Positions 27,797 to 60,089 of a stretch of DNA of 64,000 nucleotides are shown in pieces. The DNA is taken from assembly GCA_040757775.1 (NCBI GenBank), contig JBFLWQ010000005.1:8295-72294 (forward strand), in the 5' to 3' direction. The position numbers were made by a program, and so were the translations under genes. The DNA comes from Thermodesulfobacteriota bacterium. Lineage in GTDB: Bacteria > Desulfobacterota > UBA8473. Numbering within the stretch: the first letter of the stretch is position 1; every line of letters begins with the position of its first letter. The notes under the pieces are model-generated. The model did no database searches, was not told the origin of the DNA, and saw nothing but the letters and a program-made list of their open reading frames with translations.

Positions 27797-27925
27797 ACGT
27801 GAAATTTTACTTTTTTTATTCCGTCCAAGGCGTCTAGTGCCGACCCTAGAAACTGGTAAATCACTAACAATAACCTGTTTCCCTGCCTACGGGTCTTATG
27901 CTCCATGTTTAAAGGGGTGGGAAAG

Positions 27926-28732
27926 ATGAAAAATCGAGCACTACTCATCCTATACATGGCACTCCTCTTAATTTCCTGCCAGGCAAAAGATAAAACAGAG
28001 AAGGAAAAGATACTGGTCAAAGTCAATGATGTAACTATCACACTATCTGACTTCAACCGTTGTCTACACGATGAATCCCAACATAATAAGTCATTTCGAG
28101 TCTCGGAAGAGAGCAAGAGAAATTATCTTGATATACTCATTGAAAGGGAGTTATTGATCCAAGAGGCAGTTAAGAGAGAGCTAAGTAAAGAGGAAGATTT
28201 TGTTCGTACTGTGGAAAAATTTTGGGAACAAACTCTTATTCGAAATCTAATAAGAGCCCAGAGTCAGGAGATTGCCAACACGACTATTATTTCAGAAGAA
28301 GAGATCCAAAATTACTATAAAATGAAAGGAGAAGAGGTTAAGTTTAAGATGTTGCATTGTCCTAACCTTCCAGTGGCCAAAGAGTTTCTGAATCACTTAC
28401 TTCAAGGTAAAGCATTAAACTGGGATGAGGAGAGTGGGTATGTTGGTTTAAACATGCTAGATCCTTTACTGGCAAAGGAATTACATTTCCTTATGCTAGG
28501 CGAATCTAAGATAATCCAGTTAAAGAAGGGTTATGTCCTTATAAAACTGATGGGCAAAAGGCCAAAGAGAACGCCGCCGATAAATGTATTAAGAGAAGAT
28601 ATTAAAGGGGAACTTCTCCAAAAAAAACAGGCACAGGAATTGGACGACTGGATTGGAAAGCTCAAGAAAACGGCAGATATATCTGTGAATAATGAACTAT
28701 TAAAAACCGTGGGGGGAATCCCACATGAATAA
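27926..28732 (+). CDS. SurA/PpiC-like (EpsD-type?) periplasmic PPIase-family lipoprotein
   Basis: Lipobox LLLISC after MKNRALLILYMA. There is a SurA-N-like chaperone segment (VKVNDVTITLSDF...YLDILIERELLIQEA) and a degenerate parvulin-like C-terminus (GESKIIQLKKGYVLIKL). ATG 27926 follows GGGGTGGGA. Confidence 0.6.
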   Translation: MKNRALLILYMALLLISCQAKDKTEKEKILVKVNDVTITLSDFNRCLHDESQHNKSFRVSEESKRNYLDILIERELLIQEAVKRELSKEEDFVRTVEKFWEQTLIRNLIRAQSQEIANTTIISEEEIQNYYKMKGEEVKFKMLHCPNLPVAKEFLNHLLQGKALNWDEESGYVGLNMLDPLLAKELHFLMLGESKIIQLKKGYVLIKLMGKRPKRTPPINVLREDIKGELLQKKQAQELDDWIGKLKKTADISVNNELLKTVGGIPHE

Positions 28733-29330
28733 AAAGCCAAAGCTGGGAAGAAAGCATTACCTGATAAAGCGGAACTTTCAACTCAGATTTATTTTAACCT
28801 TTATTACCCTGGTGCTTATTGGAGCGATTATATCAGTAGGACTTTTGTATTATCTATCGCAGGATACAATTACCGCAACTTTTGAAAAATCACATCTATC
28901 GTTGGCCAATACTTCAAAGATACTGCTCCCTGCTATCATATATACAAATGTTACAGTGTTTATACTGATTGGCGTAGTAAGTGCGATAGTGGTTCTCCTT
29001 ATCTCCCATAAGATAGCAGGCCCTTTATATCGTTTTGAAAAAAGCTTGGGGGAGATGGGAGAAGGGGATTTCACCATTCATTTCAATATACGCAAAAAAG
29101 ATCAGCTAAAGGATATGGTTGAAAGTATAAATAAGATGTCTGCTAATATTCGGCAGAGGATAGAGGTGATATGCGATTATGGAACTCAGATTCAAGAAAA
29201 GGAGATCCAACTAAAGAATGTGTTAGAAGAAACCGATATTAAGAATGAAAGGTTGCATCAAGTAATCCTTGATATTGAGACTAAGACAAAGGATCTGAAT
29301 GATGCAATAGCCTATTTCAAGATCAAGTAA
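28725..29330 (+). CDS. small two-TM HAMP-domain membrane protein
   Basis: 201 aa with two hydrophobic segments. The HAMP-like stretch ISHKIAGPLYRFEKSLGEMGEGDFT...KDQLKDMVESINKMSANI is followed by a coiled-coil tail. No kinase or MCP output domain. 8-nt overlap with the upstream gene. Confidence 0.6.
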   Translation: MNKKPKLGRKHYLIKRNFQLRFILTFITLVLIGAIISVGLLYYLSQDTITATFEKSHLSLANTSKILLPAIIYTNVTVFILIGVVSAIVVLLISHKIAGPLYRFEKSLGEMGEGDFTIHFNIRKKDQLKDMVESINKMSANIRQRIEVICDYGTQIQEKEIQLKNVLEETDIKNERLHQVILDIETKTKDLNDAIAYFKIK

Positions 29331-29385
29331 TAGTGTATGTGCGGTTTTTCTAACAGTTGAAGTTAAGGCTTTAGCAGGTGGATAA

Positions 29386-29946
29386 GTGTGTTTCAGGGTA
29401 ATTTCCTCCTTTTTAATCCTTTTCTTGTTTTTGAATGCATTGATTTTTGCTGAAGAATGGAAGACATACAAAACCAGTTATAGTACCATCTTTTACCGAA
29501 CTGAAGAGGATCTTTTTAAGTTGGACTATAAGTTGGACGTAAACTTTATTGACAGCAAGTATCAGGGTTTTTTTAGTCACTTTTTATATAGAAAGAGGCG
29601 GGAATTCCTCTACCCTCGGCTTAAGGTAAAGGTGGATGCAATCCTAACCAGGGTTCAGCTTTTACTGGATATTTATATCAGTGACCCACATATAGATGTC
29701 TATGCCTACCCTGACAGAAAAGAATTGGATAATGCGTACTACTATCTTTATGGAAAGAGAGCCCCTTCCATAGCATATTATGAACATGAGACCAAAAGTA
29801 TATATCTATCCGTTAAAGATGTTTCGGAAGGAGTGTTAGCCCACGAAATGGCCCATTACGTGATATCTAACTACTTTGTAATTGTTCTTCCTTTGAAGAC
29901 ACAAGATGTCCTAGCCCAGTATGTCGACCAGCACCTTATTGATTGA
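29386..29946 (+). CDS. secreted hypothetical protein with HExxH zinc-metalloprotease-like motif
   Basis: 186 aa, GTG start, N-terminal signal-like segment VISSFLILFLFLNALIFA, and the single motif LAHEMAHYV near the C-terminus. Confidence 0.45.
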   Translation: MCFRVISSFLILFLFLNALIFAEEWKTYKTSYSTIFYRTEEDLFKLDYKLDVNFIDSKYQGFFSHFLYRKRREFLYPRLKVKVDAILTRVQLLLDIYISDPHIDVYAYPDRKELDNAYYYLYGKRAPSIAYYEHETKSIYLSVKDVSEGVLAHEMAHYVISNYFVIVLPLKTQDVLAQYVDQHLID

Positions 29947-29993: not shown

Positions 29994-32249
29994 GTGATTA
30001 AGGCTTCCGGAGTTAAAATAGGTCTGCTTATCGTTGTTCTTGTCTCAATTCTAATGTTCTTCGAGTCGAAATTGACTCTGTTGAATAATATTGAGTTAAA
30101 GACATTGGACATTAGATTCAGACTTAGGGGGCAGATTGAACCTGGTCCGGAAGTAGTGGTTATTGCTATAGATGACAAGAGCATTGGAAGATTGGGAAGA
30201 TGGCCATGGCCTCGTGAAAGATTAGCGCAACTGGTGAATATTCTTTCAAAAGGAGGAGCAAAGGTAATTGGATTTGACCTGATCTTCAGTGAACCAGAAA
30301 TACCCTCTGAATTGAGAAAGATAAAAAACCTCAAAAGGGTTTTCACAGATTTAAGGTTAAAAGACGTAAATAATAACAGCTCCTTATTCTACCAGGAGAT
30401 GGTAAAGGCCGAAAAAGATGTAGATAATGATAGGGTTTTTGCTGAATCGATTAAAAGGGCAAACAATGTTATTCTCCCAATGTTTTTTACCCTGGAAGAC
30501 GGTAAGGTCAACAAAGAAGGAGAGAGCCGGGAAAAGATTATAGAAGCAAAACCTTTCTTAAGTAAATCCCACTATACATTCCTTATGGGCATGGATAATA
30601 TTGAGTCTTTCCCACCCCTTAATGCAAAGGATGTGAGTCTTCCTATCTCTCTGTTATCTTCCTCCTGCAAAAGATTAGGACATGTCAATTTCCGTTTGGA
30701 TGCGGATGGTTCTCTAAGATGGGAACCATTGGTAATAGGGTATAACGGAGATTACTACCCTGTATTGAACATACAAATGGTTAGGGAGTATCTGGGGTTA
30801 GAACCGGAAGGGTTAAAATTACACTTTGGAGAAGGAATTGAGCTTGGGTCAATTTATATCCCAACTGATGAACAGGGAAGGATGCTGATTAATTACTATG
30901 GGCCAAATGGAACTTTTCCTTTCTATTCTTTTTCGGATGTATTAGACGGTACCATCCCTGATTCTGTATTCCATGATAAAATAGTACTGATAGGATATGC
31001 TGCCGTTGGATTGGGGGATCTATGGGTCACACCATTTTCTGTCGGTTTATATGGTGTTGAAAAACATGCCAATATAATTGCCAACATCCTGCATCAGGAT
31101 ATCCTTACAAGAGCGAACTGGATGATTTTCCTTGATCTGTTTTTCATAGTCCTGTTCGGTCTGGTACTTGGGATTTTTATACACAGAAATTCAGCTTTAC
31201 GGGGGGCCATCTTTGCTCTGTTTGTGTCTGTCTCATATTTAGCCATTGTTCAGTATCTGTTTGTGGTACATAAGATGTGGCTGAACATAATCTATCCAAT
31301 ACTTACTATCATTTTAACCTATACAGGTGTAACTATATTTAGATTTTTGACAGAGGAAAGGGAAAAGAAAAAGATAAGAGGTGCCTTCCAGCAGTATTTA
31401 AACCCGTCGGTAGTTAATGAGGTATTAAAGGATCCAAAGATGCTGAAACTGGGAGGGGAGAAGAGGGATTTAACGGTGTTATTTTCAGATATCAGGGGCT
31501 TTACATCCATCTCAGAAAATATGAGCCCGGAGGCTTTAGTTCACTTACTGAACGAATATCTTACGGTCATGACAGATATTGTGTTGACACATGATGGGCT
31601 TTTGGATAAATATATGGGTGATGCTATAATGGCAGTTTATGGAGCACCGGTCCCGCAGACAGATCATCACCTGCGAGCATGCATTACTGCTCTCGATATG
31701 ATTGAGAGTCTAAAAAAGTTGCAAGAAAAATGGGAGAGTGAGGGAGTACCAAGGATCGATATAGGAATAGGGATTAATTCCGGCCCTATGGTTGTTGGAA
31801 ACATGGGGTCAGAAAAGAGATTTGATTATACCGTTATGGGTGACAATGTCAATCTGGCATCACGGTTAGAGGGGATAAACAAGGAATACGGCACAACTAT
31901 AATCCTCAGTGAGTATACCCTTGAGCATGTTAAGGATCTATTCTTAGTAAGGGAGCTGGATCTGGTAAGGGTGAAGGGAAAAAAAGAGCCCATAAGGATA
32001 TATGAACTGATGGGAAAGAAGGATGCATATTTGGAAGAGTCTGTAGTAATGGCAGTAACATTATTTGAGAAAGGTCTGGATGCTTATAAGAACAGACAAT
32101 GGGATACTGGAATTGAGGAGTTTCAGAAGGTATTAGAGGTTATTCCTGCCGATTTACCGTCAAGGCTATATATTAGACGCTGTATGGAATTAAGGGATAC
32201 CCCACCCCAGGAAGATTGGGATGGGGTTTGTACCATGCTTACAAAGTAA
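29994..32249 (+). CDS. CHASE2 sensor-domain class III adenylate cyclase
   Basis: 751 aa. CHASE2 hallmarks (VVVIAIDDKSIGRLGRWPWPRERLAQLV...GAKVIGFDLIFSEPE) are followed by 3-4 TM helices. The cyclase core is LTVLFSDIRGFTSISE, KYMGDAIMAVYGAP and FDYTVMGDNVNLASRLEG. The Lys/Thr specificity positions suggest ATP. Confidence 0.85.
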   Translation: MIKASGVKIGLLIVVLVSILMFFESKLTLLNNIELKTLDIRFRLRGQIEPGPEVVVIAIDDKSIGRLGRWPWPRERLAQLVNILSKGGAKVIGFDLIFSEPEIPSELRKIKNLKRVFTDLRLKDVNNNSSLFYQEMVKAEKDVDNDRVFAESIKRANNVILPMFFTLEDGKVNKEGESREKIIEAKPFLSKSHYTFLMGMDNIESFPPLNAKDVSLPISLLSSSCKRLGHVNFRLDADGSLRWEPLVIGYNGDYYPVLNIQMVREYLGLEPEGLKLHFGEGIELGSIYIPTDEQGRMLINYYGPNGTFPFYSFSDVLDGTIPDSVFHDKIVLIGYAAVGLGDLWVTPFSVGLYGVEKHANIIANILHQDILTRANWMIFLDLFFIVLFGLVLGIFIHRNSALRGAIFALFVSVSYLAIVQYLFVVHKMWLNIIYPILTIILTYTGVTIFRFLTEEREKKKIRGAFQQYLNPSVVNEVLKDPKMLKLGGEKRDLTVLFSDIRGFTSISENMSPEALVHLLNEYLTVMTDIVLTHDGLLDKYMGDAIMAVYGAPVPQTDHHLRACITALDMIESLKKLQEKWESEGVPRIDIGIGINSGPMVVGNMGSEKRFDYTVMGDNVNLASRLEGINKEYGTTIILSEYTLEHVKDLFLVRELDLVRVKGKKEPIRIYELMGKKDAYLEESVVMAVTLFEKGLDAYKNRQWDTGIEEFQKVLEVIPADLPSRLYIRRCMELRDTPPQEDWDGVCTMLTK

Positions 32250-32466: not shown

Positions 32467-34125
32467 ATGTTTAAAAAAATTTTTATTATATTAGTTATTC
32501 TGTTTGTTGCTGCATTTCTGACCCATCCTTTTCTGGTTCAAAAATCAGAAGCTGCAATAGAAAAGATAGCCGAGGTTTCGAAATATACAGGAGAAGTTAT
32601 GGTACGAACCGGAATGGAATGGAATACCCTCAAAAAAGTTCCATACCCTTTGTTTCCGGGAGATAAAGTAGTCACAAAACAGGGTAGAGCCGAGATTAAA
32701 TTTCTTGACGGAAGCCTCTTAAGGTTGGATCTGGACTCTAATATAAGGATATCTGAAAAAAAAGAAAAGAGGGGGCTCATCTTTAAGAAGCTTGTCTTTG
32801 TTCGAAATATAAAGATTGTCCTTGGCAAGGTGTGGTTCGATGTTAGACCAGCCAAGGATTCTGAGACCACATTTATTGCGCCTACTATGACTGCTGCCAT
32901 AAGGGGAACCAGGGGAGTAAACGAGGTAGCACCAGACGGCAGGGCTGCATGGGGGTTGACGGAGGGGTCTGCTGAAACCAGGGGAAGTTTTTCAAGACCC
33001 AGTACCTTTGTGCCCCCCAACGTTGCTGTTCCAGCAAGGCAGCTGCCACCCAGAAATCCTGTTGCAGCCAACTCACTGCCCCAAAAAGCTGTTGCTGAAT
33101 CTATTGTGAAGCAGGTTGCTGCCAGGGCTGCTGCGGAGAAAGCTGATGCTGCCATGGCTGTTGCGGCTAAGATTGTTGACAAGAAAGCCGCTGCTATAGC
33201 AGAGGCTCAGGCTTCGGCTGCTAAGGCAGAGGCCGCCAGATTTGAAGCTGAGGCCCGGGTAGTATCAGCCTCAGAGACTGTCGTGGAAGCGAGAACTCTC
33301 AGAGATACAGCTGCTGCTAATGCGGCACAGGAAGCCGTAAATAAGGCTGTTGCTGCCGTAAAAACTGTAGCTGAATTAGCCAATAATGCCAGAAAGGCTG
33401 CAGACCAGGCAAGAGCTGCTGCAGATGTTAATTCTGCTGTAGTTGCTGCTACTGTTGCTAAGAGCGCTGCTACTGCGAGTGATTCTGCCGGGGCAGTTGT
33501 TGCTACGAATGCATTTGTGGCTGCTGCCCAGTCTGCAGGGGAAAAGGATGAAGCTGTCAGGGCAATAAAGGCAGTTGCTTCAGCCGAGGATGCAGCAAAG
33601 AAGGCACAAGAAGCAGCCGTTAGTATTGCTGTTATAGCTGAAAAGGCTGTTAAGGAAAAGGCCGCTAATATGGTTAATGCCGCTTTAGAACTTGGCAAGG
33701 CTGCTGCTGAAGTTTTAAAGGCTACTACGGAGTTAGCCCTGTCTGTTAAAGACATGGCAAGAGTGGCTGCTCTCGGTGATGTTGAAGGGTCAGATAAAGC
33801 TGCTGAGGCTATAGTTAAAGCAGAGGCAAGTACAGCGTCTTCTTTTGAAGCCTTAAAAGAGGGAACAAATGCATTGGAAAAAGGGGACGTGAAGGGACTG
33901 CAGCAAGCGGTCATCACCGTAAACAAAACAGCTAAAGAAACAAGTAATATAATGACCGAAGCAGCAACACGGACCAGAGGGGCACTGGCTGTAGTAGAGA
34001 AAATTGTGACCCAGGAAACGGCTCCAATGCCATATATTCCTCCTCCTACGCCACCGGTTGCTCCAGAAGAGTATGTTCCGCCGCCACCACCACCGGAAGA
34101 AGAGGTGGCTAGCCCCGCAACTTAG
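32467..34125 (+). CDS. FecR-domain protein with long Ala-rich helical region and polyproline C-terminus
   Basis: 552 aa. It has an N-terminal TM/signal segment (IFIILVILFVAAFL) and a FecR-like beta domain (GEVMVRTG...LFPGDKVVTKQGRAEIKFLDGSLLRLDLDSNIRI). About 300 aa of A/K/E/V-rich low complexity follows, and the protein ends PPPTPPVAPEEYVPPPPPPEEE. Confidence 0.8.
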   Translation: MFKKIFIILVILFVAAFLTHPFLVQKSEAAIEKIAEVSKYTGEVMVRTGMEWNTLKKVPYPLFPGDKVVTKQGRAEIKFLDGSLLRLDLDSNIRISEKKEKRGLIFKKLVFVRNIKIVLGKVWFDVRPAKDSETTFIAPTMTAAIRGTRGVNEVAPDGRAAWGLTEGSAETRGSFSRPSTFVPPNVAVPARQLPPRNPVAANSLPQKAVAESIVKQVAARAAAEKADAAMAVAAKIVDKKAAAIAEAQASAAKAEAARFEAEARVVSASETVVEARTLRDTAAANAAQEAVNKAVAAVKTVAELANNARKAADQARAAADVNSAVVAATVAKSAATASDSAGAVVATNAFVAAAQSAGEKDEAVRAIKAVASAEDAAKKAQEAAVSIAVIAEKAVKEKAANMVNAALELGKAAAEVLKATTELALSVKDMARVAALGDVEGSDKAAEAIVKAEASTASSFEALKEGTNALEKGDVKGLQQAVITVNKTAKETSNIMTEAATRTRGALAVVEKIVTQETAPMPYIPPPTPPVAPEEYVPPPPPPEEEVASPAT

Positions 34126-34213: not shown

Positions 34214-35464
34214 ATGAACAATCAGACAAGAAGGGTTTGCAAAATCGGCTGTTATCTTTTTATCCCTCTTATCTTAATACTTTTGATAATATTTTATCCT
34301 GTTAATATAATAGCTCAGGAAGAAAAGGCTCAAGAAGGTGCTCGGGAGGGACTGCGGTTGGGACCTTTAAAGCTTAAACCTGCCCTGAGTGTCAAAAAAG
34401 AACATACCGACAATTTCTTTCAGGAAGACTCCGATGAAAAAGATGATTATATCACCACTGTGACCCCGGGATTAATGCTCCAGCTGCCTATGGGGAAACA
34501 CCTCTTTCAAGTTGACTACCATGCGGATATTATTTATCTTTCTGAATACGATAACTATGATACCAATGAGCATTTTGCCGATACTATGCTGGATCTGAAC
34601 TTTCCGGGCGGATTATCTGTAAAATTTGCAAATAACTATTCTTCTACATCCAATCCCCCTACCTCCGATGGCGATAGAAGAAAAAAGTATTATCAAAATG
34701 ACTCTTCTGCTGAGGTATCCTATAAATCTGCTGATCGTTATAAGATTGATGTAAAATACGGGCATACAGTAAAGCGTATGGAGGACGAAGCGGATGAGAC
34801 TGATACCTTCGATGAAGATAAAGCGGATATAACCTTTTCCTATCGAATCCTCCCTAAGACATCAATCTTACTGGAATATGGCTTTTCTCACGTGGACAAC
34901 GAAGACAAGGGTGGAACTTCTACCGATAACAACAATCAGAAGGTCTGGCTGGGTGTTTCATGGGATCCTACTGCCAAGCTTAATGGAACGATAAAGGGTG
35001 GATACACAACTAAGGACTATGAAGAGGCTGCATTTGAGAACAGGTATGATTATGGTATGTTAATTGACCTGTCTTTCAATAAATCTGAGTATACCTCTAT
35101 AAAGTTAGCAGGCTTCCGCCGTATTGTTGAGACTGCAGTTACTCTTGCACAATCAGATTATGGCCCCGAATATGTCTCTACCGGAGGCTCTCTATCTTTC
35201 AACCATAAGTTCACCAGAAAGATAGGGACAGTCATTAATGTGTCTTATACTTATGATGACTACCTGGAGGAAGGCACTTTAGGAACCCCTGAGGGTAAAA
35301 AGAGAAAGGACGAACTCTTTAGCAGTGGGATAGCCCTGAATTTTAAGATTCAAAAATGGTTAGGTTTTGACCTGGAATACAAGTATAACAAAAAAGACTC
35401 GAATTTTGATACAAATGACTACAAAGAAAATAAGGCTATGGCAAAAATATCTATAGTCTTTTGA
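34214..35464 (+). CDS. outer-membrane beta-barrel protein (EPS-locus associated)
   Basis: 416 aa, signal/TM N-terminus, alternating beta-strand-like pattern rich in Y/D/N/G/T, and a C-terminal OMP signature ...AMAKISIVF ending in Phe. Confidence 0.6.
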   Translation: MNNQTRRVCKIGCYLFIPLILILLIIFYPVNIIAQEEKAQEGAREGLRLGPLKLKPALSVKKEHTDNFFQEDSDEKDDYITTVTPGLMLQLPMGKHLFQVDYHADIIYLSEYDNYDTNEHFADTMLDLNFPGGLSVKFANNYSSTSNPPTSDGDRRKKYYQNDSSAEVSYKSADRYKIDVKYGHTVKRMEDEADETDTFDEDKADITFSYRILPKTSILLEYGFSHVDNEDKGGTSTDNNNQKVWLGVSWDPTAKLNGTIKGGYTTKDYEEAAFENRYDYGMLIDLSFNKSEYTSIKLAGFRRIVETAVTLAQSDYGPEYVSTGGSLSFNHKFTRKIGTVINVSYTYDDYLEEGTLGTPEGKKRKDELFSSGIALNFKIQKWLGFDLEYKYNKKDSNFDTNDYKENKAMAKISIVF

Positions 35465-35756: not shown

Positions 35757-36776
35757 ATGAACTCAGAGAATCCAAAAAGTCTGGCAGGAAAGACCTTCCG
35801 TCATTTATTTTTCCTCTTCTGTTTTCTGTTTTCCATCTTTACAATCACATCCTGTGTAAGTTATCCTGATATCCCTGAAGTAAACAGAATGAAGGAAGTC
35901 GAGGAAGCCAAGCCCTCAAAAGGCAAGGAGGAGGAATCCATAGCTAAAGTGTTTGAGAAAAAAGTCAAGATTATAGCCTCCTCCTTTAAATCTCATGAAC
36001 CCAAAGACTACAGGATTGGTCCTGAGGATGTTCTTCAAGTGCAGGTTTGGGATCATGATGACTTAACGAGGACAGTAAAGGTGTCGAGGGAAGGCGAGTT
36101 TTCCTATCCCCTGATTGGCAGGGTTCATGCAGATGGGGTAACTGTTTCCGAATTGGAGAAGGACATCCGGACCAAGCTTTCGGGAAGATTCATCATTAAT
36201 CCGCAGGTTACTATTTCAGTCAATAGCTACGAAAGTAAACGGATATATATCCTCGGAGAGGTAGGGGGGCCCCAGAGTAAGGGACAGGGTCCAGGGGTCT
36301 ATCCCCTGACCGGTGAGACTACGCTTGTTGAGATTCTTTCTAAGGCAGGCGGTCCTACCCAGGATGCCGGTGACGATGTAATTGTAGTAAGACCTAGAAA
36401 CGTAGGAAGTAAAGGGAGCCCGATTCCTCTGGAGAAGGCAGGGGAGGGCGAGGTAATTACACTGAACCTGAGGAAGCTTCTTGAGGGAGATGAAAGGCAA
36501 AATATTCTTCTTAAGCATGGCGATACTATCTATCTTTCTAAGGCCGAATATTTCTTTGTAGTTGGCGAGGTAAAAAGAGAAGGCAGATACAAGTTGGAAA
36601 AGGGGACCACTGTGCTTAAGGGAATCACCACAGCCGGAGGGTTTACCGACAAAGCGGCGAAGGGTAAGGTAATGGTGCTGCGGGAAGGGGACGGCAAGAA
36701 GATAAAGATTCCGGTGAAAATGACTGACCTTATAACAGCCCAGGATGTTATTATGGTCCCAGAGAGTTTCTTTTAG
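35757..36776 (+). CDS. polysaccharide export protein (Wza/EpsE-like outer-membrane lipoprotein)
   Basis: 339 aa, lipobox FTITSC. Poly_export-type segment YRIGPEDVLQVQVWDHDDLTR...VSREGEFSYPLIGRVHADGVTVSELE, followed by SLBB-like repeats. Confidence 0.85.
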   Translation: MNSENPKSLAGKTFRHLFFLFCFLFSIFTITSCVSYPDIPEVNRMKEVEEAKPSKGKEEESIAKVFEKKVKIIASSFKSHEPKDYRIGPEDVLQVQVWDHDDLTRTVKVSREGEFSYPLIGRVHADGVTVSELEKDIRTKLSGRFIINPQVTISVNSYESKRIYILGEVGGPQSKGQGPGVYPLTGETTLVEILSKAGGPTQDAGDDVIVVRPRNVGSKGSPIPLEKAGEGEVITLNLRKLLEGDERQNILLKHGDTIYLSKAEYFFVVGEVKREGRYKLEKGTTVLKGITTAGGFTDKAAKGKVMVLREGDGKKIKIPVKMTDLITAQDVIMVPESFF

Positions 36777-36792: not shown

Positions 36793-38226
36793 ATGAAACC
36801 AAAAGAAGATATTCATCTTCGAGACTACATAAGGGTTATCCTTAAGCGAAAGGCGACTGTACTTACTGTTTTTGTTGTTCTGATTGGTACTGTTACTATT
36901 GGCTCTTTCAAGATGAAACCGGTTTTTAGGGCCACCGCTCAGATACTGATAGAGACAGAGACTCCTAATATAGTGAATATTAAAGAGGTTCTGGCGGTTA
37001 ATACCTCTAATACCGATTATTACCAAACCCAGTATGAGATTTTAAAGAGCAAGTCATTGGCATTGCGGGTAATAGAGACCCTGAATCTCAAGGATTCTAT
37101 AGAATTCAACCCTGAAAAGAAAAAGTCTCTGTCTGCCTCTTCTCAAAAGCCTTCTGAAAACAGTATGCCCACAAACAAGGAAGTGAATGATTTGATAAAT
37201 AGCTATTTGGGAAAACTAGAGATAGCGCCTATAAGAAACAGCCGTCTGGTAAATATAAGTTTCGAGGGACATGACCCTGAGCTTATCACCAGAATCGTCA
37301 ATACCCATAGCAAACTCTATATCGAGGAGAATCTGGAGAGAAAGCTCAATGCCTCCAGAGAGGCTTTGGGCTGGATTAATAACCGTATAAAAGAGACGAA
37401 GACCAATCTGGAAGGATCCGAAGGGGCTCTCCAAAGGTACAGGGAGGGGAACAACCTTGTGTCCATAAACTTTGAGGAGAGAAATAACATTATTATCCAG
37501 AAACTCAATGATCTCAACAGCGCTCTCACTGCGGCTAAAACCAAGAGGATAGAGATAGAAAACCTGTATAATGAGCTAAGGAGATTGTCCGGAGATTCCC
37601 GAAAGATTGAATCCCTCCCTGCTGTAGTTAACAATAATCTCATCCAACAGTTGAAGACACGATACGTACAATTAACGGGAGAGTACTCTGATCTCTCTCA
37701 AAAATTTGGTTCTGAGCATCCCAGGATAGTCAGATTGAAATCTGAGATATCTGAGGTGAAGGACAAGATCGCTCAGGAGATAAAAAATATTGCCGGAAGT
37801 ATCGAGGTAGAATATAAGGTGTCAAAGGCAAAGGAAGAATCTATTGCAAGAGCGCTTGAGGATCAAAAACAGACAGCATTAAGGCTTAATCAAAAAGAGA
37901 TACAATACAATGTATTGAACAGGGATGTAGAGACCAACCGTACCCTGTATCAGAGTCTGCTTACAAGGGCTAAAGAGACGAGTGTAACCGAAGAATTGAA
38001 GGTCTCTAATATTATGATTGTGGATCAAGCCAGAGTCCCGGATAGACCTGTTAAACCCAGAAAGACTTTAAACATTTTACTTGCAGTCATTACCGGGCTT
38101 ACATTGGGAATAGGGTTAGCGTTCTTTTTCGAATATCTGGATAATACTATTAAAACCCCGGAGGAGGTAGAGAAGTATCTTAACCTTCCAACATTGGGCG
38201 TTATCCCTCATTATAAGAAAAAGTAA
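36793..38226 (+). CDS. polysaccharide chain-length determinant (Wzz/GumC family, no kinase domain)
   Basis: 477 aa. Wzz N-terminal TM (DYIRVILKRKATVLTVFVVLIG), a long coiled-coil periplasmic region, and a C-terminal GNVR-like P.RPVKPRK + TM (LNILLAVITGLTLGIGLAFFFEYLD). Confidence 0.85.
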   Translation: MKPKEDIHLRDYIRVILKRKATVLTVFVVLIGTVTIGSFKMKPVFRATAQILIETETPNIVNIKEVLAVNTSNTDYYQTQYEILKSKSLALRVIETLNLKDSIEFNPEKKKSLSASSQKPSENSMPTNKEVNDLINSYLGKLEIAPIRNSRLVNISFEGHDPELITRIVNTHSKLYIEENLERKLNASREALGWINNRIKETKTNLEGSEGALQRYREGNNLVSINFEERNNIIIQKLNDLNSALTAAKTKRIEIENLYNELRRLSGDSRKIESLPAVVNNNLIQQLKTRYVQLTGEYSDLSQKFGSEHPRIVRLKSEISEVKDKIAQEIKNIAGSIEVEYKVSKAKEESIARALEDQKQTALRLNQKEIQYNVLNRDVETNRTLYQSLLTRAKETSVTEELKVSNIMIVDQARVPDRPVKPRKTLNILLAVITGLTLGIGLAFFFEYLDNTIKTPEEVEKYLNLPTLGVIPHYKKK

Positions 38227-38429: not shown

Positions 38430-39647
38430 ATGGCTAACCCAACATCCCTGATAACCCGGGAAGATACTAGCTCCCCGGTCACAGAGGCATATCGCACTCT
38501 TAATACAAATATAAAGTTTTCAAATATAGAGAGACCTGTAAAGACAGTCCTGGTTACCAGCAGTGTTACTGGAGAAGGTAAATCGACGACTGTAGCCAAT
38601 CTTGGAATAGTAATGGCACAGGCAGGGAACAAGGTGCTTTTAGTGGACACCGATCTCAGAAAGCCGGTTTTGCACAAATTGTTTAATTTGAATAACTCTA
38701 CAGGGCTGACCAGATGTTTGGTAGATACTTATGATGTTGAGTTGGGAGAAGGGAAATTAGAAGAATATGGCTTAAAGGATCTCTTTAAGCTTATAGAGGT
38801 TCAGGGTAAAACAGGTGTATTAACGGTAAATGCAGATGACGATACCATCAGTGTATCTTTTGATTCCGGCAGGATAGTCAATGCTGATTGGGGAACCAGA
38901 CCCGAGGATAAAAAGCTTGGGATTCTATTGATTAAGAGTGGAAAAGTTACCGAGGGACAGCTCAAAGAAGGTCTGCTCAGACAGAAACAGGCATCCCAAC
39001 CACTGGGATATATCCTGCTTAATATGGGTTTTATTAATATTGAAGACCTGAAAGGCCTATTGAAGCTTCAGATTGACGAGACTTTAAGACATCTGCTGAA
39101 CTGGAAAAAGGGACAATTTAACTTTCAGAATCGAGAATCTATAGAATTCTCCAATGAATTCAGGGATTTGTCTCTTTCTGATCAGCATCTCATTCAGGAA
39201 GTTGATGAAACAACCAGAAATACATTTATATATAAACAGATTTCCTCGTTTATCCAAGAGACGGAAGTAGAAAATTTAAAGGTTATCACAAGCGGTTCCT
39301 TACCTCCAAACCCTTCGGGGTTACTGGGTTCTGAAACGATGCAGCAGTTTTTAAAACACCTTGCCCTAAGATTTGATACAATTATTTTAGATTCTCCTCC
39401 AGTATTAGTGGTATCCGATGCCTCTGTATTGGCATCCATGGTTGACGGGGTGATTCTGATTTTGCAATCAGGACGACTTACAAGAGAATTGGGCAAGCGA
39501 TGTAAAGAGCAACTGGAAGGGGTCAAAGCAAGAATTCTGGGTGTGACCATAAACGATGTGAATATCAAAAAAGACACTTACTATAACTACAACTATTACA
39601 GCTACTATTACCAAAAGGAAAAGGGAGAAAAAAGCGGAGGCAATTAG
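38430..39647 (+). CDS. bacterial tyrosine (BY) kinase, CpsD/CapB/EpsG type, with a large internal DUF4388/PATAN-like insertion
   Basis: Walker A SSVTGEGKST, Walker A' VLLVDTDLRKP, Walker B DTIILDSPP, and a C-terminal Tyr cluster TYYNYNYYSYYYQ. About 180 aa (residues 101-280) are inserted between A' and the SGSLPPNP segment. Confidence 0.85.
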   Translation: MANPTSLITREDTSSPVTEAYRTLNTNIKFSNIERPVKTVLVTSSVTGEGKSTTVANLGIVMAQAGNKVLLVDTDLRKPVLHKLFNLNNSTGLTRCLVDTYDVELGEGKLEEYGLKDLFKLIEVQGKTGVLTVNADDDTISVSFDSGRIVNADWGTRPEDKKLGILLIKSGKVTEGQLKEGLLRQKQASQPLGYILLNMGFINIEDLKGLLKLQIDETLRHLLNWKKGQFNFQNRESIEFSNEFRDLSLSDQHLIQEVDETTRNTFIYKQISSFIQETEVENLKVITSGSLPPNPSGLLGSETMQQFLKHLALRFDTIILDSPPVLVVSDASVLASMVDGVILILQSGRLTRELGKRCKEQLEGVKARILGVTINDVNIKKDTYYNYNYYSYYYQKEKGEKSGGN

Positions 39648-39926
39648 ATGGACGGTGGGCAACTGGATGAAATTAAAAGGTATTTTGATATAGTAGCAGA
39701 AAACCTGAGAGATGAAATAAAAGTTATAGCCGAAGGAGTCATTAATCTTGATGGAAAATTTGAAAGAGAAATAGCTGAGTTTAGAAAAGAAAATAAGGAG
39801 GCACATAGTGATATAATGGCAGCTATAAAATTTTCCTATACAGACCTTGACCGCCGAATAGCTTTTTTAGAAAACAGATATGAAAGCGTTGAAAAACGAT
39901 TAAAACGATTAGAGGATTCTTGTTAA
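39648..39926 (+). CDS. small coiled-coil hypothetical protein (paralogue of the next gene)
   Basis: 92 aa, starts 1 nt after the kinase stop. YFDIVAENLRDEIKVIAEGV resembles [19 protein letters not shown] in the next ORF. No TM and no catalytic motif. Confidence 0.55.
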   Translation: MDGGQLDEIKRYFDIVAENLRDEIKVIAEGVINLDGKFEREIAEFRKENKEAHSDIMAAIKFSYTDLDRRIAFLENRYESVEKRLKRLEDSC

Positions 39927-39959: not shown

Positions 39960-40310
39960 ATGGATAAGGACCATATGGAAGTACTGCTGGAAGACATTCG
40001 GGGGAAATTTGATCTGGTTCTGGAGGGCCACGATGCCCTTCGTAAAGAAATACGCGATACCCGTGAGGAATTATGCGAGAAAATCAATTTAGTAGATTTC
40101 AAGGTAGAAACCCTGAATCAGAAGATCGATCACGTACATAATAAGCTGGACAAAAAGATTGATAGTGTTCGTGATGAACTAAACCAGAAGATTGATGGCG
40201 TTAGTGACACACTTGGCAAGAAAATCGACGCCGTTGCCTCCGACCTTGCTGCCCACCGCCAGGATACAGAAGCGCATCCCTCCGTTTATAAAGTGAAAGA
40301 AGGAAAATAA
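39960..40310 (+). CDS. small coiled-coil hypothetical protein with 4 tandem 11-residue KIDxVxxxLxx repeats
   Basis: 116 aa. The four repeats [33 protein letters not shown] and [11 protein letters not shown] span residues 55-98 (nt 40122-40253). The tail is [17 protein letters not shown]. Confidence 0.55.
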
Positions 40311-42564: not shown

Positions 42565-43398
42565 ATGAACGCTAAGGACATACCAGTAATTCGAATCGCA
42601 CCATCAAAAGGCTGGGTTTCTCTCAAGTTACTTGATTTGTGGGAATACCGCGAATTGCTCTATTTTCTCACCTGGCGGGATATAAAGGTACGCTACAAAC
42701 AGACTGTACTTGGCGCAGCATGGGCAATCATACAACCTTTCTTTACAATGATTGTTTTCAGCCTTTTCTTTGGCAAGCTTGCGAGAATTCCTTCTGATGG
42801 GGTCCCTTATCCGATTTTCAGCTTTTCGGCATTAGTTCCATGGACTTTCTTTGCCTACGGATTGAGCCAATCCTCAAACAGCCTTGTAGATAGTGCAAAC
42901 CTTATCACCAAAGTATATTTCCCTCGCCTTATTGTGCCGTTATCAAGCGTTATTTCGGGTGTTATAGATTTTTTAATCGCCTTTGGTGTGCTCATTATAA
43001 TGATGCTATTTTATAACATACTTCCCACAATAAATATGTTATGGTTACCAGCTCTGCTCCTGCTTGCCCTTGTCACAGCGCTGGGGGTAGGCATGTGGCT
43101 TTCTGCATTGAATGTCAAATATCGTGACGTCCGATATGTAATTCCGTTCATAACGCAGTTCTGGATGTTTGCAACGCCGATTGCCTATCCAAGCAGCCTT
43201 CTCTCCGAGCCATGGCGCACAATTTACGGGATCAACCCTATGGCTGGTGTAGTGGAAGGTTTCAGATGGGCATTACTTGGAACGCAAACAGCCCCTGGCC
43301 CTATTATTGTGGTATCTTCATTTGCAGCTCTTGTTATACTTATCAGCGGGGTATATTACTTCAAAAGAATGGAAAAAACGTTTGCGGATGTTGTTTAG
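42565..43398 (+). CDS. wzm: ABC-2 type polysaccharide/O-antigen export permease
   Basis: 277 aa, 6 TM, N-terminal LWEYRELLYFLTWRDIKVRYKQTVLGAAWAIIQP, typical of Wzm/TagG/KpsM permeases. Confidence 0.88.
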   Translation: MNAKDIPVIRIAPSKGWVSLKLLDLWEYRELLYFLTWRDIKVRYKQTVLGAAWAIIQPFFTMIVFSLFFGKLARIPSDGVPYPIFSFSALVPWTFFAYGLSQSSNSLVDSANLITKVYFPRLIVPLSSVISGVIDFLIAFGVLIIMMLFYNILPTINMLWLPALLLLALVTALGVGMWLSALNVKYRDVRYVIPFITQFWMFATPIAYPSSLLSEPWRTIYGINPMAGVVEGFRWALLGTQTAPGPIIVVSSFAALVILISGVYYFKRMEKTFADVV

Positions 43399-43469: not shown

Positions 43470-43886
43470 ATGGATAAGACAATAATTGGGGAAAACAGAG
43501 GATATAGAAATTTAGAAATTTACAGGTTGGCTCATGAATTGGGAATACATATACATGATTTTTCTCTTAAACTGCCGCAGTATGAACTTTATGAAACTGG
43601 CAGCCAACTCAGGCGGGCTTCTAAGTCTGTTTCTGCCAATATAGTCGAAGGATATGGAAGGCGCAAATATAAGGCAGAATTCATCAGATTTATAGTTTAT
43701 TCAATTGCATCATGCGATGAGGCAACCGAATGGCTAACCTATGTAAAAGATTGTCATCCAAACCTTACAAACGATGCTGTTAAATTGCTTGATAACATTG
43801 ATAAATTAGGTAAGAAAATCAACAAATTCCTCCAATCTCTAACAAGCAACCAGCAACCAGTAACCAGTAGCGATCAACATGACTGA
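43470..43886 (+). CDS. four-helix-bundle protein (23S rRNA intervening-sequence protein / Avd-like family)
   Basis: 138 aa. YRNLEIYRLAHEL...QLRRASKSVSANIVEGYGRRKYKAEFIRFIVYSIASCDEATEWL matches the family pattern as I recall it. The stop overlaps the wzt start by 8 nt. Confidence 0.75.
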   Translation: MDKTIIGENRGYRNLEIYRLAHELGIHIHDFSLKLPQYELYETGSQLRRASKSVSANIVEGYGRRKYKAEFIRFIVYSIASCDEATEWLTYVKDCHPNLTNDAVKLLDNIDKLGKKINKFLQSLTSNQQPVTSSDQHD

Positions 43887-45216
43887 CCTTGCCCTCAAAG
43901 TAGAGAATCTTTCAAAGCTATACAGGATTGGTTCGCGTCAACAAAGCTACAAAACACTGCGCGACACCCTGACCCACGTCATGTATGCGCCCATTCGTCG
44001 CATCCGCTCAACGCTCGGTTATTCCTCCTCAGTCGTCCGTCCTCGGTCATCTGGCGTCTGTAACGACACCATTTGGGCATTGAAAGACGTCTCCTTTGAA
44101 ATAAAGCCCGGAGAGGTTGTCGGTATTATCGGCCGCAATGGTGCAGGGAAAACCACACTTCTGAAGATTCTTTCAAGAATTACAGAGCCAACGGAGGGAT
44201 ATGCTCAAATATATGGCAGGGTTGGATCGTTATTAGAGGTCGGTACAGGCTTTCATCCCGAACTGACCGGACGTGAAAACATCTACCTTAACGGCGCAAT
44301 TTTAGGGATGAAAAGGGTAGAGATTGAACGTAAGTTTGATGAGATTGTTGATTTTTCAGGCATGGAAAGATTTATTGATACACCCACAAAGTATTTCTCC
44401 AGTGGAATGCAGGTACGCCTGGCGTTTTCAATAGCAGCCCATCTGGAACCAGAAATTCTTTTAGTAGATGAGGTATTGGCTGTCGGGGATGCAGAGTTTC
44501 AAAAAAAGTGTATTGGGAAAATGCATAGCGTTACTGAAGAAGGGCGGACAGTGTTGTTTGTAAGCCATAATATGACAGCAATTCATAACCTGTGCAGCCG
44601 CACTATATTAATTGATAATGGCAAATTAATTCTGGACGGACACACGGAATATGTTATTAATAAATATCTGGATCAAAATCTGGCGGAGGGCGCTATTGTC
44701 ACCTGTAAAGAACTCGACGGAAAAGTAGAGGGGGTAATACGGAAATATGACCCTTCAATTCAGTTCAAGGAAATTGCTATAACGGATCAGAAGGCTATAC
44801 CCTGTAATGCATTTCATTCAGATGAGGGGCTCAGAGTTTCCGTTACTTATGAATGTCTGACTGTAGTCAACGACTTACGAGTTATCGTACAGATTGTGGA
44901 TGATGAAAATAGAGCCATCTTGACTACGCAGAACATTGATGACTCCGATGAAGAAAGTCTCTACTGGAAAAATCCTGGTATCTACAGGTCGTTCTGTACT
45001 ATTCCTCCGAACACCTTTGGGGAAAAGCGATTCTATATTTCTGTGCAGTTAGAGAATCCAAAAGTCGAGCATTTAATTATCAATAAAATTTTGGGTTTTG
45101 ACATTCAATTTGTAGGCTATCAAAATATACATGGCGCTCATTGGAATTCGTTCTTACGGCCTCGGCTTAGTTGGGAAACACAAGTCCTGGAGGTTAAAGA
45201 AGAAACTATTGCATAG
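43879..45216 (+). CDS. wzt: polysaccharide/O-antigen ABC transporter ATP-binding protein with C-terminal extension
   Basis: 445 aa, Walker A GRNGAGKTTLLK, signature FSSGMQVRLAFS, Walker B ILLVDEVLAVGD. A roughly 190-aa C-terminal beta-rich domain resembles a Wzt glycan-binding domain. Confidence 0.88.
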   Translation: MTDLALKVENLSKLYRIGSRQQSYKTLRDTLTHVMYAPIRRIRSTLGYSSSVVRPRSSGVCNDTIWALKDVSFEIKPGEVVGIIGRNGAGKTTLLKILSRITEPTEGYAQIYGRVGSLLEVGTGFHPELTGRENIYLNGAILGMKRVEIERKFDEIVDFSGMERFIDTPTKYFSSGMQVRLAFSIAAHLEPEILLVDEVLAVGDAEFQKKCIGKMHSVTEEGRTVLFVSHNMTAIHNLCSRTILIDNGKLILDGHTEYVINKYLDQNLAEGAIVTCKELDGKVEGVIRKYDPSIQFKEIAITDQKAIPCNAFHSDEGLRVSVTYECLTVVNDLRVIVQIVDDENRAILTTQNIDDSDEESLYWKNPGIYRSFCTIPPNTFGEKRFYISVQLENPKVEHLIINKILGFDIQFVGYQNIHGAHWNSFLRPRLSWETQVLEVKEETIA

Positions 45217-45326: not shown

Positions 45327-46325
45327 TTGGGACGTGGTCCAACGAAAAAATATTATAAAGTATTAAATGAAAATTATGTTGAAGGAAGTTTGACATGCCT
45401 GAAACCAGAAGTAATCAAAGAGAAAATCACGGCTGATTTCCCGTTGGTTTTAAACATAGAACCTACCAATGCTTGTAATGCTAAATGTTATTATTGTCCT
45501 CATGATAAAGTCGTTGACACCCAAGGGATTAATTATTTAAGTTTGGATGATTACATAAGAGTGATTGACCAAATTAAGGACAATAAGCTTATTATGTTGA
45601 ATCTTCATAAAGATGGAGAACCTTTGTTACATAATGATCTTCCGAAGATGGTTGAGTATGTTAAACAAAAGGATGCTGCTCAAGTAATACATCTTAATAC
45701 TAATGGCATATTGCTCAATTCAAAGACCGGGCGCGGAATTATTGAGATGGAAATTGATGATATTACAGTCAGTTTTGATGCAGTTCGGGAAGAAACCTAT
45801 TGCCGGTTTAAGGGGATAAAAGGTCTGGATAAGCTGGAAGATAATATCAAAAGAGCTATTGAATATAGGGAAAATATTGGTAGTAAAACTAAAATACGAG
45901 TTAAAATTATGGAATTTGATGATATAGAAAAAGAGGAAATTGAACTTTTTGTCGAGAAGTGGTCTGTTATTGCTGACGAAGTACAGGTGACAGGTATTCA
46001 CAGTTGGAGTGGAGCTGTTGATATTAAAGTAACAGATGAGCAGACTGATAATAGATTTCCGTGTGCATTGCTTTGGTATATGCTTGCCGTAAACAGCAAT
46101 GGGAAAGTAAGCATGTGTAATGTAGATTGGAATTATTCTGGTGTTGTTGGGAATATCCATAACCAAAGCATTCACGAAATCTGGAATGGGGAACCTCTAA
46201 TTAATATCCGTAGAGCACATCTAAACGGAATTTGGGATTGCCCTCCGGTGTGTGAGGAATGTGTTGTTTGGGTAAGCGTTGGAAATTTATGGGATTATTT
46301 AAAATCAAAAGAAGAGTTTGTTTGA
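45327..46325 (+). CDS. radical SAM protein with SPASM/twitch-like C-terminal Cys cluster
   Basis: 332 aa, TTG start 6 nt after AGGAG. CxxxCxxC appears in EPTNACNAKCYYCPH. The C-terminus has C-x12-G-x4-C (CALLWYMLAVNSNGKVSMC) and CPPVCEEC. Confidence 0.8.
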   Translation: MGRGPTKKYYKVLNENYVEGSLTCLKPEVIKEKITADFPLVLNIEPTNACNAKCYYCPHDKVVDTQGINYLSLDDYIRVIDQIKDNKLIMLNLHKDGEPLLHNDLPKMVEYVKQKDAAQVIHLNTNGILLNSKTGRGIIEMEIDDITVSFDAVREETYCRFKGIKGLDKLEDNIKRAIEYRENIGSKTKIRVKIMEFDDIEKEEIELFVEKWSVIADEVQVTGIHSWSGAVDIKVTDEQTDNRFPCALLWYMLAVNSNGKVSMCNVDWNYSGVVGNIHNQSIHEIWNGEPLINIRRAHLNGIWDCPPVCEECVVWVSVGNLWDYLKSKEEFV

Positions 46326-56183: not shown

Positions 56184-56313
56184 AACTTTACCCTTTATTT
56201 TGTGTGGAATTTTTCGTCATTACGGGTTTCAAAAGGAGGCGATTAGAATGCTTATGGGTAAGAGATTGGATAAAGACATATATAGAACATGAAATAGTAA
56301 AAAAGGGATAAAT

Positions 56314-57966: not shown

Positions 57967-58235
57967 CTTACGCATGGGCTCAATAGAAAGCCTAGTATAA
58001 ACACTAGATGTTTGATTCAATGTATTCAAAATAAGGCTCCCTTGAGGTTCATTCCGGAATTCCATAAGACCACAGGCGTAATAACGCGTTAGGACAGGCT
58101 GTACCCAAGAATTTCAAAAGGTTCATCATAGCAAGTATTCGGACGTCGTGATTCGAGAATTTTACTTTCTCACGATTATCATTTCTTTTTATAAGGGCGC
58201 ATAAGTAGGGATTTAGTTTTCACACGAATAATATT

Positions 58236-60055: not shown

Positions 60056-60089
60056 GGCAGAATAATATTATGTGAATCAGAAATAAAAT

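Follow-up and report, generated by a model that had tools for sequence, protein, structure and literature searches.

Cyclic di-GMP (c-di-GMP) is the main bacterial signal for the switch to biofilm life, and it directly activates polysaccharide machines of the synthase type, namely BcsA and Alg44 (through PilZ), PelD, PgaCD and NfrB (through MshEN). For the Wzc/CapB tyrosine kinase co-polymerase systems, to our knowledge, the phosphorylation cycle is the only established switch. Wzc is regulated by autophosphorylation and by the phosphatase Wzb, and we know of no second-messenger input to it. Here we describe a bacterial tyrosine kinase (BY-kinase) encoded at 38430..39647 in a 64,000-nucleotide stretch (the window) of contig JBFLWQ010000005.1, assembly GCA_040757775.1, from a Thermodesulfobacteriota bacterium. 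The P-loop domain of this kinase is interrupted by a PATAN (DUF4388) domain, within which lies a four-helix module of the MshEN_N type, predicted to bind c-di-GMP. We put at about one in two the probability that the kinase is gated by c-di-GMP, with the ligand on the nested module biasing the cycle of ring assembly and autophosphorylation, and hence polymerisation and export.

The closest described system is the split, Firmicutes-type BY-kinase CapA/CapB of Staphylococcus aureus (PDB entries 3bfv, 2ved and 4jmp), which is the best match to the window protein in both sequence and fold. The two have in common the Walker A, A′ and B motifs, a C-terminal tyrosine cluster, and a kinase that is separate from a membrane co-polymerase with an activator C-terminal tail. 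They differ at the insertion site, where CapB has ∼7 residues and the window protein 168, and in the oligomerisation motif, which is a full EX2RX2R in CapB and ExxRxxN in the window protein. Unlike in CapA/CapB, the operon is of the Gram-negative type and includes a Wza-like exporter, and the kinase is partnered by a large, EpsF-like Wzz/GNVR protein. The Escherichia coli kinases Wzc and Etk (3la6, 7nhr, 3cio), which are fused to a type 2a polysaccharide co-polymerase (PCP), show the same kinase fold, the partnership with Wza and a presumed octameric ring cycle, but have no insertion at this site.

The inserted parts have described relatives of their own. Vibrio cholerae MshE (5htl) and the GSPII-B domain of Thermus thermophilus PilF (8pdk) contain, as does the insert, tandem 24-residue motifs with a 5-residue spacer in a four-helix bundle, and they agree with the insert model at 36–39% identity and a root mean square deviation (rmsd) of 1.3–1.4 Å over 53–54 residues. 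[quoted passage not shown] The PatA-type PATAN-REC regulators (Anabaena PatA; Synechocystis PixG, PixE and LsiR) contain the same PF14332 domain, including the helical 'α-clip'. There, PATAN is N-terminal in a response regulator aimed at the type IV pilus motor, whereas here it is internal to an enzyme that has no REC domain. E. coli NfrB shares the idea of an MshEN-type module which controls a polysaccharide machine post-translationally; however, it is a family 2 glycosyltransferase (GT2) synthase with a terminal (C-terminal) MshEN fusion, and not a kinase with an internal insertion. A second precedent for MshEN-type control of polysaccharide machinery is the 'MshEN_N - AAA_31' architecture of EpsG, which was catalogued in a supplementary table of Wang et al. 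2016 (PMC5013675).

Judged by its sequence, the 405-residue product of the open reading frame (ORF) is a BY-kinase of the CapB/CpsD type, and autophosphorylation is predicted. The NCBIfam hidden Markov model (HMM) TIGR01007, for polysaccharide biosynthesis tyrosine autokinases, reaches 203 bits (cut-off 108), its match being divided between two stretches of the protein. In a phmmer search of the PDB, aa 4–99 align with residues 47–142 of the S. aureus CapA-CapB chimera and aa 275–394 with residues 150–265, and because both flanking stretches align with the CapB chimera, the P-loop domain of the kinase is truly split. The top PDB matches were CapB and Wzc, both by sequence and by fold. The AlphaFold2 (AF2) model of the full protein (predicted local distance difference test, pLDDT, 81.5; predicted template modelling score, pTM, 0.79) matched 4jmp in Foldseek with an E-value of 1e-16, and the template modelling (TM) score normalised to the target reached 0.83. 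An earlier model-made note on this DNA, drawn from the sequence alone (the original prediction), had called the protein a BY-kinase on account of GEGKST, VDTDLRKP, DTIILDSPP and the terminal tail TYYNYNYYSYYYQ. All four are present in the translation, and the assignment was borne out. The features that mark a BY-kinase are thus found together, namely Walker A, A′ and B, the tyrosine cluster, the family HMM and fold, and adjacent genes for a PCP and an outer-membrane polysaccharide export (OPX) protein. Two narrower identities were rejected. The EpsG model TIGR03029 gave 130.8 bits against a cut-off of 313.8, and since its match begins at profile position 74, the N-terminal EpsG-type module is missing from the window protein. 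The model for the XrtA/PEP-CTERM-associated tyrosine autokinase, TIGR03018, which the original prediction had proposed as a check together with DUF4388, gave 128.1 bits against 230.65; DUF4388 did pass.

The kinase motifs are well kept. A word-indexed search returned 28 clusters (at 90% identity) with the insert, 37–82% identical to the window protein, and in an alignment of these 28 members the kinase motifs and the insert were kept throughout. E49, G50 and K51 of Walker A, and D75 and R77 of Walker A′, do not vary, and D321, S322, P323 and P324 around Walker B are nearly invariant, as is Y385 in the tail. The tyrosines between Y384 and Y394 are presumed, from the sequence, to be the autophosphorylation sites. 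At the α2 motif the family consensus is EAYRTLRTNI, and asparagine takes the place of the third arginine only in the window protein and its three closest relatives. In CapB, E23, R26 and R29 of EX2RX2R serve ring contacts, and mutation of EX2RX2R residues in CapAB did not abolish autokinase activity (PMC2422856).

The insertion was measured with an HMM of 244 match states, built from 77 ordinary kinases of 225–260 aa. In the window protein, 168 aa follow match state 108. The original prediction had given ∼180 aa (aa 101–280; 38730..39269), so that the location was essentially right and the length close to the 168 aa measured, at aa 102–269. It had also recognised a DUF4388/PATAN domain between Walker A′ and Walker B, and this held: the Pfam match at aa 107–238 (E 3.3e-23) is, as a profile score, far beyond chance. 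Secondary structure in the full and the insert-only AF2 models predicts the order β-α-β-β-β, a four-helix sub-insert, and a last β strand. The four helices, at aa 163–223 between modelled β4 and β5, are the PATAN α-clip, a sub-insert of two helical hairpin repeats; the α-clip was first described by Makarova et al. 2006, and its resemblance to the N-termini of T2SS/T4P ATPases was remarked on in that year. For the β core of PATAN, neither the sequence profile nor Foldseek found a solved structural relative in the PDB. Within the inserted domain the models reach a pLDDT of 85–92 (the insert-only model as a whole, 77.5). The linker by which the chain returns to the kinase core falls below 50 at aa 250–261 of the full model, and at the matching residues of the insert-only model, and is the least conserved stretch of the 28-member alignment.

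The insert is absent from every solved BY-kinase (CapB, Etk, Wzc, BceF and VpsO), and each of these aligns with the window protein in two flanking stretches. When the full model was compared with them in Foldseek, only the kinase core matched and about half of the model did not (TM by query length, 0.41–0.48). Among the ∼190 ordinary kinases sampled, none had an insertion of 40 aa or more. From the sequence matches, the architecture is three domains deep, the kinase enclosing PATAN and PATAN in turn enclosing MshEN_N.

The helical part of the insert (aa 162–214) is assigned, from both sequence and model, as an MshEN_N-type module and a predicted c-di-GMP binder. It consists of motif I, KLGILLIKSGKVTEGQLKEGLLRQ (aa 162–185), the spacer KQASQ, and motif II, PLGYILLNMGFINIEDLKGLLKLQ (aa 191–214). 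The HMM NF053729 ('cyclic di-GMP-binding domain, MshE-related') matches aa 162–213 with an E-value of 3.6e-10 and 39.5 bits against a cut-off of 38, and there are weak HMM matches to NfrB, a glycosyltransferase activated by c-di-GMP, in the MshEN region at its C-terminus. The c-di-GMP site of MshEN_N is defined as two 24-residue motifs with a 5-residue spacer, 53 residues in all, the strict motif being RLGxx(L/V/I)(L/V/I)xxG(L/V/I)(L/V/I)xxxxLxxxLxxQ, while a relaxed form admits leading Lys and Pro (Wang et al. 2016, PMC5013675). The insert has the exact register of 24+5+24, and fits the relaxed motif at 10 of the 11 constrained positions in motif I and at all 11 in motif II. It does not satisfy the strict motif, having Lys at positions 1 and 11 of motif I and Pro as the first residue of motif II. 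Of the 12 ligand-contact positions, 11 fit Leu/Gly/Leu/Leu/Gln with Arg or Lys at position 1, and 10 are identical to the strict motif. Motif I of Thermus PilF GSPII-B, which has been solved with c-di-GMP bound, likewise begins with Lys (its motif II begins with Leu), and mutants of that domain are named K167R and K167L.

Searches with the insert alone gave the same relatives. By phmmer it matched PilF (1e-8) and MshE-N (2e-4), and a family profile of the insert matched PilF (1.7e-24), PilB (4e-11) and MshE-N (1.9e-10), with only profile positions 59–116 involved. In Foldseek the insert-only model superposed on c-di-GMP-bound MshE (5htl) with an rmsd of 1.4 Å over 54 aa at 39% identity, and on PilF GSPII-B (8pdk) with 1.3 Å over 53 aa, at probabilities of 0.99–1.00, these being matches of a predicted model and not of an experimental structure. 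The whole-model search returned kinase cores only, so the MshEN match emerged from the separate insert-only model. From this we infer that the insert binds c-di-GMP. The original prediction had spoken of a sensory or protein-interaction module, which was incomplete: it missed the tandem motif at aa 162–214, and with it the candidate ligand.

The nearest parallel for a fusion of this kind is EpsG of Methylobacillus sp. 12S (TIGR03029), a BY-kinase-like P-loop protein of an EpsE/F/G-type export operon which has an MshEN_N motif, as the window protein does. The two motifs I are strikingly alike (IGDLLVKSGKITRAQ in EpsG, LGILLIKSGKVTEGQ in the window protein), and BLASTP gives 34% identity over 56 aa (E 7e-7). 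However, EpsG is a simple N-terminal MshEN_N fusion and has no PATAN, whereas in the window protein the module is nested in PATAN within a kinase whose tyrosine cluster is intact. An EpsG equivalog in a metagenome-assembled genome (MAG) of Methylococcales (locus L005, 10013..10840; TIGR03029 330 bits, NF053729 at aa 6–57) confirms the N-terminal arrangement, and its motif I is very similar to that of the window protein (BLASTP E 7e-7). It ends in ...GAIISNF, and since it lacks a C-terminal tyrosine cluster it may not be an autokinase at all. Modules and ATPases of the same kind are thus joined in two different fusion geometries.

How the insert might act on the kinase can be considered from the published CapAB structure. 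With the offset that places window K51 on CapB K55, window residue 99 corresponds to CapB ∼103 and window residue 275 to CapB ∼111. The sheet order of CapAB is 3425167, with β3 (residues 111–113) as the distal antiparallel edge strand, and the CapA activator contributes a strand beside β7 and a helix on α10 (PMC2422856). As the insertion point maps just before β3 in a sheet of this order, the alignment puts the insert in the α4-β3 connection, at the sheet edge opposite the activator docking site. The original prediction had placed it on the surface that contacts the Wzz-like activator, and in this respect the CapAB alignment and topology speak otherwise. The pTM of 0.79 for the full model suggests that the insert packs against the kinase in a defined way.

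In CapB, the β2-α4 loop holds the catalytic base D79, as well as R81 and K82, which touch the neighbouring subunit and the substrate tyrosine (PMC2422856). The PATAN domain is inserted in a surface loop of the P-loop domain. In the proposed mechanism the insert hangs from α4 at its C-terminal end, and at its N-terminal end this helix begins in the β2-α4 loop, with the Walker A′ aspartates and residues of the ring interface. Because α4 would join the insert to this loop, and so to both catalytic and ring-interface residues, binding of c-di-GMP to the nested MshEN_N module would shift the balance between an assembled, autophosphorylating ring and a dissociated state. The kinase would work with the adjacent Wzz/GNVR co-polymerase and the Wza-like exporter, and the c-di-GMP level would then be coupled directly to polysaccharide polymerisation and export. 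By analogy with CapAB, it is plausible that the β2-α4 loop and α4 serve as a lever from the insert to catalysis and ring assembly; the direction and the route of any effect on kinase activity or oligomerisation are inferred.

The insert-bearing kinases form a family. A profile search was run exhaustively against 1.84 billion representatives, and among the best 150 (at 50% identity), which were assessed, 74 have the full insert and 6 the β part alone. The family therefore comprises at least 74 clusters at 50% identity, and the window protein is not a one-off. When all proteins fetched are counted, redundant cluster members included, 43 insert-bearing proteins are of 700 aa or more, and these are mostly Wzc-type Wzz-GNVR-kinase fusions (∼900 aa) with the same insert. 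Pfam placed DUF4388 between the two halves of the P-loop domain in all ten distant members scanned. The original prediction had called for a survey of the insertion point, and the result was uniform: in 72 of 72 sequences with an insertion of at least 40 aa, it follows the same HMM state (108), with a modal length of 168 aa, and no second large insertion site was seen among the 265 proteins aligned.

This uniformity bears on the possibility that the insertion is neutral, in a permissive surface loop, or is an artefact of assembly or annotation, with no regulatory role. The site is indeed a surface loop at the sheet edge, away from the activator, and the return linker is poorly conserved and modelled with low confidence. 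However, the insert is in frame and is kept down to ∼30% identity, at the same site and at near-equal length, in split and fused kinases from independent metagenomes, and the models fold the inserted domain with confidence. Recurrence of this sort is beyond an artefact, and family-wide conservation effectively refutes this explanation, to which we give very little credence, and for the same reason an origin by chimeric assembly or as an intein-like element was rejected.

All the insert-bearing proteins come from metagenomes or MAGs, that is, from uncultured bacteria, the named carriers being Thermodesulfobacteriota, Desulfobulbaceae and Syntrophobacteraceae. The window is itself from an uncultured Desulfobacteria bacterium, its SecY being 96% identical to the SecY of a MAG with that name. 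A single-protein scan of GTDB genomes found ordinary BY-kinases only, and no named genome with the insert, and a search for contigs encoding the window protein gave no match. Existing annotations of the carriers go no further than 'DUF4388 domain-containing protein' or 'polysaccharide biosynthesis tyrosine autokinase'. The original prediction knew of no described example, and this stands: a literature search found no paper on a PATAN insertion in BY-kinases, most subscription journals being outside its coverage, characterised BY-kinases lack the insert, and the EpsG arrangement of 2016 is an N-terminal fusion. When the kinase cores of 231 sequences (244 columns) were placed in a neighbour-joining tree, the insert-bearing proteins fell into 18 pure clades instead of one. 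We did not accept multiple insertions on the strength of this tree, since the alignment is short and divergent and there is no support measure. As the insertion site and length are identical across the family, a single origin is favoured.

The tandem motif itself is kept to differing degrees. NF053729 matches 27 of the 28 close family members at E ≤0.01, and all five distant members scored pass its cut-off, at 38–59 bits; two members lacking the α-clip score nothing. Eight representatives have a perfect relaxed tandem motif (22/22, with the 5-residue spacer), and 38 of 75 score at least 20. In sequence terms, such integrity points to selection on the ligand-binding residues and not on the fold alone. 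On the other hand P0024, P0145, P0148, P0151, P0160, P0162 and P0171 match only the first ∼50–60 positions (the β part) of the insert profile; P0024 cleanly lacks the 53-residue MshEN-like module alone, and neither it nor P0145 has an NF053729 match. Since some members keep the core without the helical module, the PATAN core and the module are separable.

Such members are one of the grounds for an alternative in which PATAN with its α-clip is a module for protein–protein interaction or localisation, as in PatA-type regulators, binding no nucleotide. The MshEN-like helices would then be a structural or interaction surface, and the partner another envelope machine, a substrate of the kinase, the polymerase or the exporter. 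PATAN of the Synechocystis PixG/PixE-type regulators binds PilB1 and PilC with no reported ligand, kinase inserts without the α-clip keep the PATAN core in the absence of the putative ligand site, Gly3 or Gln24 is substituted in many relatives, and some MshEN-like domains, such as that of XpsE, have lost c-di-GMP binding (PMC5013675). Against this, the best-conserved residues go beyond the core hydrophobics to include those that contact c-di-GMP in MshE, the spacer is retained at exactly five residues, and the motif is perfect in the eight representatives. Docking and ligand binding are not mutually exclusive roles, and as a full explanation we consider docking unlikely, although it deserves to be taken seriously.

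It may also be asked whether c-di-GMP is the physiological ligand, or whether the module binds another messenger, for example 3′3′-cyclic GMP-AMP (cGAMP) or a further cyclic dinucleotide of Thermodesulfobacteriota. Geobacter-type deltaproteobacteria use cGAMP signalling, and the first residue of both motifs in the window protein departs from Arg. VcMshEN does bind cGAMP, more weakly (PMC5013675). However, the Gly-backbone and Gln contacts through which guanine and ribose-phosphate are recognised are intact in both motifs, and every characterised MshEN domain prefers c-di-GMP, which makes a different ligand improbable.

The genes around the kinase are those of a polysaccharide export operon (Table 1). 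The co-polymerase encoded directly upstream scores 255 bits with TIGR03017 (EpsF), which is under the cut-off of that model. Its C-terminus, ...LPTLGVIPHYKKK, is similar to the stretch found at the junction ahead of the kinase domain in fused proteins and, by analogy with the C-terminus of CapA, is likely to be the kinase activator. In all eight related loci examined a Wzz/GNVR protein accompanies the insert-bearing kinase, as a separate adjacent gene in six and as part of the same, fused protein in two. A Wza-like gene lies upstream of the kinase or the PCP in L007, L009, L011, L012, L013 and L014, the exception among the eight loci being L010, and the BBP2_2/EpsL-like gene is present also in L007, L009 and L012. 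Downstream of the kinase are genes for GDP-mannose dehydratase, an epimerase, the Wzm/Wzt ATP-binding cassette (ABC) transporter, radical S-adenosylmethionine (SAM) enzymes and glycosyltransferases.

Several points weigh against gating by c-di-GMP. The NF053729 score of the window protein exceeds the cut-off by 1.5 bits only. The leading Arg of motifs I and II is replaced by Lys and Pro, and a further Lys occupies a normally hydrophobic position of motif I. Many relatives have Ala for Gly3 in motif I and His for Gln24 in motif II, so, to judge from these sequences, binding may be weak or lost in part of the family. Because members without the α-clip keep the PATAN core, this core must serve some function in its own right. 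The allosteric path is drawn solely from the CapAB topology as published. Finally, no gene with GGDEF, EAL or PilZ was found among the window ORFs scanned, which included the two small ORFs adjoining the kinase, the ribosomal-protein/RNA polymerase block at 1–22 kb being mostly unscanned; and only two related loci have such a gene nearby (a REC-GGDEF-PilZ gene 7 kb away in one, a PilZ gene upstream in the other), which is weak support at most for a link to c-di-GMP.

Table 1. Coordinates of the kinase, its motifs and inserted domains, and the export genes upstream (window positions)
Feature	Position	Strand	Basis and remarks
CapB/CpsD-type BY-kinase with internal PATAN/MshEN_N insertion	38430..39647	+	405 aa; ORF translation, HMM, fold
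α2 oligomerisation motif EX2RX2R, here E19-x-x-R22-x-x-N25	38484..38504	+	Sequence; Asn in place of the third Arg
Walker A / P-loop, SSVTGEGKST (K51)	38559..38588	+	Sequence; fits GxxGxGK[ST]
Walker A′, VLLVDTDLRKP (D73, D75, R77)	38634..38666	+	Sequence; fits hhhhDxDxR
Insertion relative to ordinary BY-kinases, aa 102–269	38733..39236	+	168 aa, after helix α4 and ahead of edge strand β3 in the CapB fold; hmmalign
PATAN domain (DUF4388, PF14332), aa 107–238	38748..39143	+	Pfam E 3.3e-23, 82.5 bits (cut-off 25)
MshEN_N-type 53-residue module (α-clip), predicted c-di-GMP site, aa 162–214	38913..39071	+	NF053729, motif, fold
Low-confidence linker back to the kinase core, ∼aa 240–265	39147..39224	+	Models, conservation
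Walker B, IILDSPP (D321)	39381..39401	+	Sequence; extended Walker B hhhhDxPP satisfied by TIILDSPP
C-terminal tyrosine cluster, YYNYNYYSYYY	39579..39611	+	8 Tyr, Y384–Y394; aligned with the tail of CapB
BBP2_2 / EpsL-like outer-membrane β-barrel, encoded first in the export operon	34214..35464	+	Pfam BBP2_2 1e-23
Wza-like outer-membrane polysaccharide export protein	35757..36776	+	Pfam Poly_export and SLBB; NCBIfam EpsE-like
Polysaccharide co-polymerase, Wzz and GNVR, EpsF-like	36793..38226	+	477 aa; Pfam GNVR 2e-20, Wzz 1.8e-8

A relation was also seen between the inserted motif and the C-terminal tail. Across 88 insert-bearing proteins, motif integrity and the number of tail tyrosines were negatively correlated (Spearman rho −0.38, p 3e-4, uncorrected for phylogeny). 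The subgroup with perfect motifs (P0163, P0166, P0176, P0187, P0192, P0210, P0233 and P0242) has 0–6 tail tyrosines, mostly 0–4, and in the two of its members whose N-terminal half could be aligned the sequence after Walker A′ is D-L-[HQ]-R-P, compared with D-L-R-K-P in the window protein. The window protein is unusual in combining a near-perfect tandem motif with 8 tyrosines.

Two small coiled-coil ORFs (92 and 116 aa; 39648..39926 and 39960..40310) follow the kinase, with weak, sub-threshold Pfam matches, and the ATG of the first directly abuts the kinase stop codon. They were rejected as conserved partners, having no counterpart in L001–L012, five of which have an insert-bearing kinase. On the other side, immediately upstream of the export operon and on the same strand, is a gene for a CHASE2-domain adenylate/guanylate cyclase (29994..32249), followed by one for a FecR-domain protein (32467..34125) that contains a long Ala-rich region and is rich in Pro at the C-terminus, so that a pair of genes for cyclic mononucleotide signalling adjoins those of a putative c-di-GMP-sensing kinase. 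A trio of genes, encoding a SurA_N-like protein, a HAMP-domain protein and a protein without any Pfam match, neighbours the export operon in the window (27905..29946) and also, on the opposite strand, in the distantly related locus L009 (3065..4887), and small dCache proteins are encoded ahead of the operon in L009 and L012.

Several unrelated loci have genes for PqqD-like and/or radical SAM/SPASM proteins a short way (a few genes) downstream of their insert-bearing kinase (window 45327..46325; L010 11480..14271; L012 15580..17158; L014 13027..13320), and the glycan cluster of the window includes a radical SAM/SPASM gene. Between wzm (42565..43398) and wzt (43879..45216) there is a homologue of the 23S rRNA-intervening-sequence protein (PF05635, E 3e-24) at 43470..43886, with an overlap of 8 bases into the start of wzt. 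On the minus strand, the one gene of any size encodes an IS1595-family transposase (55392..56165), beyond which, at 56000..64000, the GC content is 32–36% as compared with ∼40% elsewhere in the window. The transposase followed by this drop suggests a separate acquisition for the distal part of the glycan cluster.

The proteins described here are a real, conserved and undescribed variant of the BY-kinase class, with a predicted regulatory role. The link between c-di-GMP and polysaccharide export is, beyond the architecture itself, a prediction, made for a family known from uncultured bacteria alone. If it is true, a c-di-GMP receptor spliced next to the Walker A′ element would provide a direct and testable input to the kinase. 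We would go further only tentatively, with rather less than even expectation, in suggesting that this is the first cyclic-dinucleotide receptor in the catalytic core of a Wzc/CapB-type autokinase, that c-di-GMP gates ring assembly, autophosphorylation and PCP/OPX export, and that its binding may have partly replaced the phosphorylation switch in the subfamily that combines perfect motifs with a tail in which tyrosines are few or absent. The family also offers a clean example of domain nesting at three levels, in which a P-loop kinase holds PATAN and PATAN holds MshEN_N. PATAN, a poorly understood domain, would gain a biochemical read-out, and the insert would offer a natural handle on the way in which ring assembly controls polymerisation.

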